From Alphaproteobacteria bacterium CG11_big_fil_rev_8_21_14_0_20_44_7 (GTDB lineage: Bacteria; Pseudomonadota; Alphaproteobacteria; Rickettsiales; 21-14-0-20-44-7): a stretch of DNA of 32,582 nucleotides. Shown one piece after another: positions 19,578 to 27,287 of the stretch (position 1 is the stretch's first letter; every line of letters begins with the position of its first letter). The stretch is taken from contig PCXJ01000100.1 in assembly GCA_002787615.1 (NCBI GenBank), positions 1 to 32,582 of the forward strand. Reading direction: 5' to 3'. The translations under genes and the position numbers were made by a program. The notes beneath the pieces were generated by a model. The model was given only the letters and a program-made list of their open reading frames with translations, was not told the DNA's origin and searched no databases.

Positions 19578-20243
19578 ATGAAATTCAATATCCTGACATT
19601 ATTCCCCGAAATCTTCCCCGCCTATTTGGGGCACTCCCTTGCGGGTGAAGCGCTCAAAAAGCAAATATGGGAATATACCGCAACCGATATAAAGCAATTC
19701 GGACTGGGCAAGCATCGCAATGTTGATGATACGCCCTATGGCGGCGGTGCAGGCATGGTTATGCGCGCTGATGTGCTCGGAACTGCCATAGAATCGCTTC
19801 CGCGCTGCAAGACGATTTATATGAGTCCTCGCGGCATTCCCTTAACGCAAAAAAAAGTGCAGGAATTGACAAAAATCCCAGAAATCACCATTATATGCGG
19901 GCGATTTGAAGGAATTGACGAGCGTGTTATCGAGCATTACGAAATCGAGGAAATTAGCGTTGGTGATTATATATTATCCGGTGGAGAACCAGCCGCACTC
20001 AGCTTGATGGACGCAATCATCCGCTTATTACCCGGTGTGTTGGGAAATGCGGAAACTCATAATGAGGAGAGCTTTTCCAATAATCTGCTCGAATATCCGC
20101 ATTATACGCGCCCGCCAGAGTGGAATGGGTTAGAAGTGCCAGAAGTGCTGAAAAGCGGAAATCATGCAGAAATTGAGAGATGGCGGAAGGACAAAGCGCT
20201 AGAAATTACCAAATCACGCCGCCCTGATTTGCTAAAAAGCTAG
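19578..20243 (+). CDS. trmD: tRNA (guanine37-N1)-methyltransferase TrmD
   Basis: 221 aa. Motifs are FNILTLFPEIF, DDTPYGGGAGMVM, ICGRFEGIDERV, ISVGDYILSGGE and LEYPHYTRP. Confidence 0.95.
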   Translation: MKFNILTLFPEIFPAYLGHSLAGEALKKQIWEYTATDIKQFGLGKHRNVDDTPYGGGAGMVMRADVLGTAIESLPRCKTIYMSPRGIPLTQKKVQELTKIPEITIICGRFEGIDERVIEHYEIEEISVGDYILSGGEPAALSLMDAIIRLLPGVLGNAETHNEESFSNNLLEYPHYTRPPEWNGLEVPEVLKSGNHAEIERWRKDKALEITKSRRPDLLKS

Positions 20244-20244
20244 G

Positions 20245-23200
20245 CTACGCGACACCGCCCACACCTTGACTATTATCTCTCGCTAATTTGTTCAAAGTCT
20301 GCGCCTCGAGAGAATCCGCGTTCATATCATACTCACCGCGCTGATATTTATCGGCTAAATCGGCAACAACATCAATCTTTTCTGGCTGCTCAAGGCTCTT
20401 TTCAACCTCATCCCTGCTTGGAATATCAGCATTTACCTGCATTCTATGCTTGCTAATATCCTCTTCCAGAGATTTTGGCTCTTCGCTAGATAGTTTTGCT
20501 ATACGTACAATTTCTTCCAGACCCGCCTCATTTGCCTGATCTTTGCTCACCCAACCTGAGCCAAGGATATAAAATGCATTATTATCCCTACTTGCTAATT
20601 GGCTTGCTTGCGCAGGGTCATAAATTGATTGAGGGTAAATATCCTGAGGGTCAATAAAAACATCCGTTCTGGTTATTTTTGCTGAAAAGTCCAGATGAGT
20701 TGCATATCCACCATTTTTGGATTCCGGTGCGATTTTGGCAATCACCTCACCTGCTTCAACTCTTTGACCTTCCCGTACCAATTGGTCAATATGGGTTAGC
20801 TTTATATCCAAACCATTATCGGTTCTTAAAATCAGGTGATGCCCCAAAGATTTTACAATTTCACCACTATAAGGCGCAACAACCTCTTCACCGGTTTTAC
20901 CACGATAATCGCAGGCTTTATGGTCTTTGCTATAATATTTGCCGGCTTTTTCAAATTCAGGATAATATCTGCTACCAAAAACCTCTGTTATCTCCGGTGC
21001 ACGACTTGGTATAGGATTAAACTTTGAAGGCTCAAGATTTGCAACAAAATCAAAGGCATTTGCGGTTTTTATGCTTTTCGGCAAATCTTCATAAGCTTGC
21101 GCCATGGTTTTGCATTCATCTGTGATGCAATCATGCTCAGCAACGGAATTTATCGCCATACGAATTGCATATTCTGTTGTTGGCCCAAGGTCTTCATCGG
21201 CCTTAATTCCGATCTCACGCTGGAACCTCCCGACATTATTACCCATATCGGAGCTTTTTATATAACCAATCTCGCTCAGAGCAGCGATATATGTTGTTGG
21301 CTTATCCCAGTCAAATATATCCCTGATTCTGCCACGCAAATTATCGCGGGCATTTGCCAGCAACCCTCTTGGCTCGGCGGCAGGTGGAGTTTCAGCCGGA
21401 GGACGGTCAACCACATCGGTTACATTACCTTCAGCATCCCTAATAAGCGCCGTATTATCGCCCTGAGAACGCGCGGAAGCGATTAGCCTTTTTTCAGGAA
21501 TTTTCTCACCATTCATAATCGCTGCGAATTCCTGCATTTTCTCAGGCGTAATTTCGGTTTTGATATTCTGATGCGCATACATACCGTGCTGAATCACCGC
21601 ATCGCGCAAAACTGCATGCATTTTTGGCTCTAATTCGGCATTCAGGCTTTCTGCTCTTTCCGCCGCACCGTTTTTCTGACGTTCTGCCACTAATTCCGGT
21701 ACTTTTCCGCCATTTTCCGTGACCATTTGGTTATAAATCGCATCGGCCATTTTTTCGGCTCTTGCGCGCATTCTTGGCACATCAACCAATTCCGGAAAAT
21801 CATCAGGATTATTATTAAATCCTGCCTCCACCAAAAAAGCTGGCATTTTTGTTGATCTCAATACGGCAAAATTATTTGTTTTCACCCCGCGCGAGCGTAA
21901 ATCACTGGTTTGGTCAACTGCATTATTAACAGCCTCGGCATAACCTTTTGATTGCTCGCTATAATGGAAAGTTTCATATCCGGTAGCCTGCTTAGCATCT
22001 GCATCATTACTATGTAATGAGAAAAACACAGATTTTGCCTCGCCCATATCATTATTGGCAAATTCAGCGCGTGCCTGCCATGATTTCTGCAATGCACGCC
22101 GATCGGTACCACCGGAAAATCCATGGACTTTATCACCCTCGGTGGTGAAACGAACATTCACGCCTTTTGCCGCCAGCGCCTGCGCCACATAATATTGCTC
22201 AATGGATTTTTGGTCGGTTTCACTAACACCCACCGTTTTTTCATCAGGCTTTCCGCGCCCCTCAATCCCTTTATTCGGTACTACCCCGATTTTTGATTGT
22301 GCACCTGGGGCAAAATTGCCATTGATATAATCCCCATGACCGCGATCCAGATAAACCGTAAAATCACCTTTTTGGCCTTTACCTTTATTAAAAGTGAATG
22401 CTTCTGGAATTTTACTAACTGCAAAAGTTTGCGGGACAGACATCACCGGAACAACCGTTACCCTGCCCTTTTCGTCAAATAATCCAGCAGAACTTTTCGC
22501 TAATTCTGCAAAATTCGCATCCGTTTTTGGAGTCTGGGCTGGAGTCGAAGTCGGAGCTGGAGCTGGAGTCGGAGCTATTTCTGCAGATTCATATTCCTCT
22601 GTCACCTTGTTCGGGTCACTGGATGCAATTAAAACTCTTGAGCTACCCTGCGAAGGCGATTTTCCACGCTCTTTTAGCATTTCCAAATCAGCTCTATCAG
22701 TAGTATCAACTCCGCTTGGGCGCATATCTTTCGGCAAGCTATTATACCATTCGAGATACTCAATTGAATCCTGCGCATTAACGAACGTACCGCAACCGCT
22801 ATTGCCATCACTTGCATGGGTTAGCGCATTTACCGTTGAGCCTTTATGTGTGCCGACAATTTGGCGGCTTGTTGATGTACCTTGATTCGGGCCATCAGGA
22901 TGAATGCCGAATCTATCGCGACCACCTTTATATTCTTCGGGATTTTCAATTCTCTGGAAGAATCCTGCATTTTCACCGTTAATTCTGCCGAATGAATAGC
23001 CTCTCCATTCTTCTCCTTGCTTTCTGAATTCGGAAATCGCTTTTTGCGGGTCGCCCCCGTCATCAATATCAAATGTCCAGAAGCCTCGGCTATTATATTG
23101 CGTGCCCGCCAATTTAGCAGGCTTGGAGTTCAAATCCTCATAAAATGATGGCAATGCACCATAACCTTCACTCTTATCGCTACCATATCCCTTGCTTTTT

Positions 23201-26619: not shown

Positions 26620-26843
26620 ACCAACACCTTAATAATTAATTATATTTAACATACCCATACTACACAATCAATGTTACAAAATTATTACCTAAACAAAACT
26701 TTTTAACCAATCTTTACAATATCTTAATTTATTAAATATTGTGAGCTTATAATCATCTTTCTTTTAATGTAAAGAATATGAATTTTATATTTGCTTTTTT
26801 TTCGCTCTTTTGTTAAACACTACCTCCCGAATGGAGTTTTGAT

Positions 26844-27287
26844 ATGAATGAATTACAAAAATTTGAAGCTAGAGAGCTTGAGAACCTAACCGAAAACAAG
26901 GATATCCCTAAGTTTGGAGCAGGTGACACCGTAAAGGTGAATGTCCGTATTATTGAGGGCAGCAACGAGCGTATACAGGCTTTTGAGGGCGTATGCATCG
27001 CAAAGAAAAATCGTGGAGTTCATTCAAGCTTCACAGTTCGTAAGATTAGCAATGGTGAAGGTGTGGAGCGTGTTTTCCCTCTCTATTCGCCACTTCTGGA
27101 ATCAATTCAGCTATTGCGCCGTGGTGATGTTCGCCGCGCTAAGCTATATTACATGCGTGGTCTGACCGGTAAGAAAGCGCGTATTAAGGAAAAAGCTGAT
27201 TGGATGAACAAACCTGCGCCGAAAAAAGACAAGAAGCAGGAAGCTAAAGCAGAAACTACTAAAAAAGCAGCTCCAAAAGCTGAATAG
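26844..27287 (+). CDS. rplS: 50S ribosomal protein L19 (with Lys/Ala-rich C-terminal extension)
   Basis: 147 aa. Motifs are [62 protein letters not shown] and [16 protein letters not shown] lies 8 nt upstream of the ATG. Confidence 0.95.

Follow-up and report, generated by a model that had tools for sequence, protein, structure and literature searches.

Leaderless peptidoglycan hydrolase genes occupy what appears to be an old, family-wide gap between trmD and rplS

In the canonical operon of Escherichia coli, trmD is followed directly by rplS in the order rpsP-rimM-trmD-rplS, often with ffh in front. Here we describe a locus at which this pair has come apart. It lies in a 32,582-nucleotide (nt) stretch (hereafter, the window) from Alphaproteobacteria bacterium CG11_big_fil_rev_8_21_14_0_20_44_7 (contig PCXJ01000100.1 of GCA_002787615.1), which is the whole of contig C105 in an assembly of 128 contigs (1.5 Mb, 81% complete). 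Both genes are clear orthologs of their canonical counterparts, in the same relative order and on the same strand; unlike in E. coli, 6.6 kb and a single opposite-strand gene for a protein of 2124 amino acids (aa) stand between them. A contiguous, co-directional rpsP-rimM-trmD-rplS operon is absent from this genome: contigs C98, C73 and C61 carry rpsP, ffh and leuC, respectively, and rimM appears to have been lost from the whole family. We consider it probable that the trmD-rplS gap is an old slot, common to the family, whose position has stayed fixed while hydrolase modules were exchanged within it, and whose occupants are under the control of a motif of their own and are probably exported by a type IV secretion system (T4SS).

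Three kinds of described system come close. The first comprises hot spots of integration and diversification that are flanked by core genes, along with the module exchange of polymorphic toxins: as in those cases, conserved flanks (recA, trmD and rplS) enclose variable content with module-wise mosaic homology. Unlike hot spots, the present locus holds content of one functional class, has no mobility genes, and interrupts a near-universal pair of translation genes. The second is the set of bacteria-killing T4SS effectors of Xanthomonadales (X-Tfe), leaderless peptidoglycan hydrolases that are defined by a C-terminal XVIPCD and by adjacent immunity genes (PMC6536674). Our slot proteins share with X-Tfe (Souza 2015; Sgro 2019, PMC6536674) the missing leader, the combination of peptidoglycan binding with lysozyme, M23, amidase or lipase-type modules, a chromosomal VirB/VirD4 T4SS in the genome, and genes that are scattered away from the vir locus. 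They differ in that we detected neither an XVIPCD nor an upstream lipoprotein immunity (X-Tfi) gene, in that the T4SS is rvh-like, and in their confinement to two fixed slots around trmD; the resemblance is thus one on paper, and we do not regard the slot proteins as members of that effector family. The third is the proposal, made for basal Rickettsiales, that an ancestral rvh T4SS killed bacteria and had proteins with peptidoglycan-binding (PGB) domains as its effectors; the evidence for it, in the parts of the two papers drawn on here, consists of domain counts (Schön et al. 2022, PMC9352585; Lehman et al. 2024, PMC11077975). The Mitibacteraceae of these papers resemble the present family in domain class (PG_binding, M23), in their small alphaproteobacterial genomes, in an rvh-like T4SS, and in having no ATP/ADP translocase; those same parts of the papers describe no trmD-flanking location, module shuffling, promoter motif or 2124-aa fusion.

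The layout of the window is as the first-pass annotation had described it. The product of trmD (19578-20243, + strand; 221 aa), tRNA (guanine37-N1)-methyltransferase, scores 311.8 bits against the NCBIfam equivalog NF000648 (cut-off 220), with residues 1-219 of 221 covered, and matches Pfam PF01746 at E=6e-58. Ribosomal protein L19, encoded by rplS (26844-27287, + strand), scores 158.6 bits against TIGR01024 (cut-off 90.7) and matches PF01245 at E=6e-48; its C-terminal extension is rich in lysine and alanine. From the trmD stop to the rplS start there are 6600 nt, and one minus-strand open reading frame (ORF) for 2124 aa (20245-26619), the giant gene, fills them, leaving a divergent spacer of 224 nt (26620-26843) before rplS. 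On the other side of trmD, across a spacer of 281 nt (19297-19577), a second slot gene between recA and trmD encodes a leaderless peptidoglycan hydrolase of 687 aa (17233-19296, − strand; Pfam Amidase_3 at residues 409-605, E=8e-16), so that trmD is a single plus-strand gene with a minus-strand hydrolase gene on each side. It had been noted earlier that this spacer and hydrolase stand where rpsP and rimM would be expected; that is correct, but the idea of a local displacement does not hold for rimM, which is missing from all five genomes of the family.

The age of the split was judged from gene order and from a maximum-likelihood tree of TrmD. We compared the five genomes of the window's family (G000-G004; G and L numbers label the genomes and loci compared) and related contigs, which gave 12 split loci: the window, G001, G002, G003, and eight contigs found through their TrmD homologues (65-74% identity). 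All three informative genomes of the family have an opposite-strand gene after trmD and then, where the contig is long enough, rplS; each of the eight further contigs has the same layout. In the tree, the 12 loci fall without exception into one clade (ultrafast bootstrap (UFBoot) 99, SH-aLRT 95). The sister clade (G037, L126 and L140) has trmD and rplS adjacent and keeps the order ffh-rpsP-rimM-trmD-rplS-leuC, the cluster running intact to leuCD in L126 and L140, and in 21 other families of the order rplS follows trmD at 20-123 nt, often with rpsP and rimM upstream. Because the split loci form one TrmD clade, with adjacency retained in its sister clade and in those 21 families, the split is, by this phylogenetic evidence, apparently an old and family-wide trait for which one origin suffices. 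There are four other families of the order in which trmD is unlinked from rplS and has unrelated neighbours. The first-pass annotation had envisaged an interrupted arrangement that relatives share together with an orthologous gene, and here the interruption does prove to be clade-wide, but the occupant is not orthologous, as it differs by genus.

A scan of metagenome contigs for TrmD returned only relatives at ≤57% identity and added no family members, and the nearest named TrmD homologues (~63% identity) are labelled ‘Alphaproteobacteria bacterium’ or as a ‘Micavibrio aeruginosavorus’ metagenome-assembled genome (MAG). RimM (PF01782) was undetectable in 5/5 family genomes, two of them 91% and 97% complete, and present in 3/3 other families tested; in the window's own assembly, neither a Pfam search nor tblastn with RimM of the nearest outgroups found it. 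This looks like the loss, at the level of the family, of a widely conserved ribosome-maturation factor. We also observed, in the sister-clade locus L140 (GCA_963204825.1), a gene at 4170-5726 for a leaderless, Ser/Gly-tailed protein of 518 aa, on the opposite strand between rimM and trmD; the cluster is otherwise canonical, and this gene may represent an intermediate state of the break-up.

At all 12 loci the gene in the trmD-rplS slot is on the opposite strand and encodes a protein without a signal peptide. Their sizes vary widely: 312 aa (L119), 314 (G001), 358 (L139), 397 (L123), 467 (L120), 528 (G002), 549 (L138), 563 (L122), 741 (G003), 841 (L124), 539 and 451 in two genes (L125), and 2124 in the window. 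Peptidoglycan-related Pfam domains occur in the slot gene of at least nine loci, with catalytic families that differ: Phage_lysozyme with PG_binding_1 (G003); PG_binding_1 with M15 (G001, L139); S11 with PG_binding_1 (G002, L125); a lysozyme-like domain with GDSL (L122); PG_binding_1, Amidase_3 and Glucosaminidase (L124); and GDSL, PG_binding_1, Amidase_3 and M23 in the window. Some slot genes are true orthologs of one another, namely the S11 genes of G002 and L125, and the pair L120 and L122 at 68% identity.

A comparable set of genes stands on the other side of trmD in relatives, usually between recA and trmD. Their domains are Amidase_3; CHAP with Amidase_3; Glucosaminidase with Amidase_3; lysozyme with M23; or M15, and several of them share N-terminal regions. 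The window's 687-aa protein aligns with two of these upstream genes, at 41% identity over the N-terminal 230 aa (L125_1132) and at 35% over 386 aa (L124_635). All-against-all BLASTP of the hydrolases gave patchy, mosaic homology that crosses trmD, and the clearest case is L124: the two genes that flank trmD there (3693-5600, L124_635_up; 6336-8861, L124_841_slot) share both Amidase_3 and Glucosaminidase, at 37-40% identity, in swapped order. We take this pair, on its alignments, as direct evidence of apparent duplication and module exchange across trmD. As far as domain content and homology can tell, then, the positions of the hydrolases are evidently fixed and their catalytic modules evidently shuffled.

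The giant gene is the extreme member of this series. It starts at a TTG codon, with AAGGTG 5 nt upstream; because just 3 further codons are open upstream of that start, there is no room for a signal peptide. From the N-terminus, its product has a GDSL/SGNH esterase module at residues 427-615 (24775-25341, − strand, as for all modules; Pfam Lipase_GDSL, E=4e-5, 24.3 bits with a cut-off of 23.6; the Lipase_GDSL_2 match is under its cut-off), a PG_binding_1-like module at residues 847-904 (23908-24081; E=0.004 and under the Pfam cut-off, and E=7e-4 in a whole-genome scan), and an Amidase_3 (N-acetylmuramoyl-L-alanine amidase) module at residues 1454-1629 (21733-22260; E=3e-24, 86.5 bits with a cut-off of 27; also recovered in the whole-genome scan). 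There follow a second PG_binding_1-like stretch at about residues 1778-1821 (21157-21288), seen where the protein aligns, at 36% identity (E=8e-4), with PG_binding_1 of the slot protein in G001, and a Peptidase_M23 module at residues 1899-1983 (20671-20925; E=2e-10, 41.5 bits with a cut-off of 28.7). With catalytic domains above curated cut-offs, the protein qualifies as a predicted multi-module peptidoglycan hydrolase. The closest family relatives of its Amidase_3 are the amidase modules of the L125 and L120 upstream genes (26-27% identity), and its M23 module is 31% identical to that of the G003 upstream gene.

Other parts of the giant protein are orphan sequence. Its N-terminal 340 aa have no Pfam or PDB match, and a single-sequence AlphaFold model of residues 1-340 has a predicted local distance difference test (pLDDT) score of 33; residues 1090-1330 have no Pfam match at E≤1, and their single-sequence model has a pLDDT of 35.7. 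A HMMER search of 1.84e9 representatives with the N-terminal 340 aa returned only the giant itself and a 2869-aa protein of 31 kringle domains. That match (giant residues 60-115; nine weak repeats, 27% identity) we judged to be spurious, the giant being without cysteines there. No full-length relative was found in 40 related genomes, in a species-genome collection, or among 5.8e9 proteins, and tblastn found no paralog in the genome itself, not even between the two Amidase_3 modules. An origin of the giant as a known slot ortholog with appended modules is unsupported, because profile comparison of residues 1-640 with the slot group of L122, L120 and L125 shows no homology (probability score 0.1). 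The giant ORF, the longest open frame of the assembly, is not an assembly artefact: at least four independent assemblies encode the identical 2124-aa protein with its neighbours in the same order, one of them in an ENA contig of 84.9 kb and another in a Logan contig from a different run.

Alignment of the spacers yielded a direct-repeat motif of 17 nt, TGTMAT-N5-TGYAAY, in the sense of the hydrolase genes. The window has one exact copy, TGTCATAATATTGTAAT (19336-19352, − strand), which ends 39 nt before the 687-aa gene's ATG, and one copy with 1 mismatch, GGTAATAATTTTGTAAC (26673-26689, − strand), which lies inside the 224-nt spacer and ends 53 nt upstream of the giant gene's start. Across the family, 14 of 25 upstream regions of trmD-flanking genes contain the motif at ≤1 mismatch, against 0.7% in shuffled spacers, and its end is often exactly 22 nt before the ATG. 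Exact copies in the window's genome number 11, where 2.4 would be expected and a reversed-sequence control gave 1; eight or nine of them stand 22-74 nt upstream of leaderless, acidic, unannotatable ORFs (contigs C26, C29, C50, C84, C99 and C123), one of which has RTX-like GGxGxD repeats. Because 4 of 10 motif sites lie between co-directional genes, the motif serves the gene downstream of it, rather than trmD or rplS. A regulon of secreted proteins may have this motif as its promoter or operator element, and the geometry of the motif recalls, by analogy, the direct repeats of OmpR/PhoB-type regulators. A sigma-54 reading was discarded: the spacing falls 1 nt short of the -24/-12 consensus, whose GG and GC dinucleotides are mostly missing here.

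A possible export route is present. VirB4 and VirD4 were found in all four family genomes tested, with two VirB4 genes in G000, G001 and G003 and one, plus a partial VirD4, in G002; in G001, two VirB6 genes come after VirB3-VirB4. With its duplicated VirB4 and VirB6, the T4SS of the family looks rvh-like. No gene for a type VI secretion system (T6SS) sheath (VipB) was found in the same four genomes. ATP/ADP translocases occur in 8 of 36 sister families, in up to five copies, and there are none in the window's family, a gene pattern consistent with a non-parasitic branch at the base of a Rickettsiales-like order.

We hypothesize the following course of events. In the family's ancestor, the ffh-rpsP-rimM-trmD-rplS cluster would have been broken up and rimM lost, leaving trmD isolated between opposite-strand genes for leaderless hydrolases, in two slots: trmD-rplS and recA (or clpS)-trmD. 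The positions would since have stayed constant while catalytic modules were exchanged, duplicated across trmD and fused; turnover of this kind might be expected of diversifying selection on antibacterial weapons. In the present species, the occupant would have grown to 2124 aa, taking in an orphan N-terminal region, GDSL, PG-binding, Amidase_3, a second PG-binding, M23, and a further region without Pfam match. Each hydrolase unit would be governed by its own TGTMAT-N5-TGYAAY element, ending 22-74 nt before the start codon, with trmD and rplS on promoters of their own inside the shared divergent spacers, and the abutting 3′ ends would reflect general compaction of the genome. Export would bypass Sec and Tat and probably proceed through the family's VirB/VirD4 (rvh-like) T4SS; the likely target would be the cell wall of other bacteria, and the slot hydrolases are plausibly secreted antibacterial effectors.

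Several points weigh against this scheme. The relatives are MAGs or metagenome contigs throughout, with five species genomes in the family, and the slot proteins of L119, L120 and L138 have no Pfam hydrolase domain. Neither an XVIPCD-like nor any other shared C-terminal domain was detected: the last 125 aa of the giant have no Pfam match at E≤1 in a copy of Pfam in which the presence of an XVIPCD model was not confirmed, Gln is not abundant in its last 70 aa, and no alignable domain is common to the tails of 24 family proteins. No immunity-like gene adjoins the giant in its slot, there being no other minus-strand ORF of ≥80 aa between trmD and rplS and nothing in the 224-nt spacer. Exact motif copies number just 4 each in G001 and G003, against 1-2 in the control, with mixed downstream genes; because this enrichment is weak, a family-wide regulon beyond the trmD-flanking genes is not established. 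Finally, we infer the secretion of the hydrolases, its T4SS route and their antibacterial activity from genome sequence, just as we infer the Rickettsiales-like identity of the order from the make-up of its T4SS and from the translocases of sister families.

A bolder version of the scheme is one that we hold only tentatively. In this version the family, Rickettsiales-like and free-living or epibiotic, would use the two slots as a dedicated cradle, controlled by the motif, in which antibacterial substrates of its rvh-type T4SS arise; the giant would be a multi-warhead effector, made by fusion in situ, and antisense transcription across trmD would link attack to a slowed translation capacity.

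The main rival to the effector role is a domestic one: the flanking hydrolases could be housekeeping autolysins with which the cell remodels its wall or divides from its sister, and chance rearrangement could have brought them beside core genes. In favour of this, among the four family genomes tested, Amidase_3 is found solely in the window's two genes (G001-G003 have none) and PG_binding_1 almost only in slot genes, no immunity gene adjoins them, and PGB proteins can act in cell-shape remodelling, as Schön et al. point out (PMC9352585). Against it, the proteins have no Sec or Tat signal and no room for one, their catalytic type changes between genera in a way unlike that of a housekeeping enzyme, and they share their motif with other leaderless, acidic orphan ORFs, including the RTX-like one. 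We consider an autolysin role unlikely on balance.

The 3′ ends of trmD and the giant gene meet almost without a gap: the trmD stop (TAG, 20241-20243) and the complement of the giant's stop (CTA, 20245-20247) are separated by the single base 20244. The first-pass annotation had singled out this spacing, and had stated that no terminator fits between the converging genes and that their transcription must collide, the latter more firmly than the sequence allows. The spacing is as described, but is no special feature: among 225 convergent ORF pairs of the genome, crudely called, the gap is ≤1 nt in 27% and ≤5 nt in 35% (median 19 nt), and in the other two clean convergent pairs of the window it is 11 and 12 nt. 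With 27% of pairs equally tight, a 1-nt spacing alone is ordinary for a compact genome. A scan of the junction found no terminator-like hairpin. The first strong minus-strand candidate after the giant gene is a hairpin at 19404-19434 (− strand; 13-bp stem plus T-run, fold energy -16.6 kcal/mol), beyond trmD and just upstream of the motif of the 687-aa gene, which suggests that giant-gene transcripts run antisense across trmD and end there. Tight convergence might be functional, if transcripts of the slot gene and of trmD each run antisense into the other gene and induction of the hydrolase thereby lowers trmD expression. In favour of such coupling, the 3′ ends have an overlap of 4-35 nt or a gap of 1-3 nt in 10 of the 12 family loci, despite slot-gene 3′ ends that are not homologous, and the junction offers no terminator. 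Against it stand the frequency of tight convergent ends in the genome at large, the gaps of 46 and 115 nt at the other two loci, and the hairpin itself, which is lineage-specific, not being present in the 8 relatives checked. We think coupling improbable, and somewhat more so than an autolysin role.

The first-pass annotation had read the gap as an insertion of accessory cargo into a core operon. Part of that reading stands, in that an ancestral cluster has been broken by non-core hydrolase genes; an insertion that is recent, horizontal and particular to this genome seems very improbable to us. It could appeal to the retention of trmD-rplS adjacency in most other families, and to a giant without ortholog in the 40 relatives or full-length relative in the large protein collection, but the split is common to a 12-member clade, in every member of which the slot is occupied, and the family motif is present in the giant's promoter region. 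None of the marks of a recent island (odd composition, repeats, tRNA or integrase, patchy presence) was seen. The composition of the giant gene is typical: among equal-sized genome windows it ranks at the 57th percentile for tetranucleotide distance from the mean of the genome, and its GC content is 0.452, against 0.433 ± 0.017 for the genome. Searches near the gene found no direct or inverted flanking repeat, tRNA, Rfam RNA, integrase or insertion sequence. Least probable of all is that prophage lysis cassettes integrated beside trmD and left the slot genes behind: the domains of these genes do match endolysin families (phrog_435, E=1e-26; phrog_2742) and a leaderless PG_binding_1 plus catalytic domain is a typical endolysin layout, but no holin, integrase, capsid or other phage gene occurs at any of the 12 loci, position and promoter motif are conserved across the family, and sizes of up to 2124 aa are unlike those of endolysins.

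Some further features of the window and its relatives are worth recording. Downstream of rplS, an orphan ORF of 147 aa (27331-27774, + strand) lies at an inversion breakpoint; it has no match in Pfam, NCBIfam or PHROG and was not found at relatives' loci, and it occupies the same place in L149 and L150. Next to it, a block with clpA, a 180-aa ORF, clpS and leuD (27787-32173, − strand; assigned by Pfam, and by orientation relative to L119, L124 and L138) is inverted with respect to family relatives, in which rplS-leuC-leuD...clpS-clpA are all on the strand of rplS; this inversion, at 27331-32580, is species-specific. At the opposite end, a truncated protein of >1954 aa (3-5864, − strand) with a long Gly/Asn-rich repeat region resembles filamentous haemagglutinin (TpsA), has a paralogous N-terminus on contig C31 (39% identity over 470 aa), and is a candidate adhesin for cell contact. 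Along the whole window the + strand has negative GC skew, and the minus strand carries nearly all genes, with trmD, rplS and the 147-aa ORF as isolated plus-strand islets; if the skew reflects the direction of replication, rplS would be transcribed head-on to it, an effect that is inseparable from coding-strand bias in 32 kb. In the relative G023, whose complete genome of 1.9 Mb encodes five ATP/ADP translocases, the match to TrmD (G023:C1:167217-168020) is in two pieces about 120 nt apart inside one open frame of 284 codons, which may be an insertion in trmD or a break in the alignment.

What the locus offers, in the first place, is a highly conserved bacterial gene pair that has been permanently split and yet functions, a clean synapomorphy, together with the loss of rimM, of one family. 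It also pinpoints two fixed sites at which leaderless wall hydrolases diversify, in genomes that have VirB/VirD4 and no T6SS sheath gene. The proposal of killing by an rvh T4SS now has specific proteins, a promoter element and a natural series of variants with which it can be tested, and the main interest of our findings lies there, in the locus as a candidate source of antibacterial effectors and in its motif, each of which is open to test. If the two slots do serve as a cradle for such substrates, their occupants would be mappable candidates for the ‘congener-killing’ effectors that have been postulated for the ancestor of the Rickettsiales.

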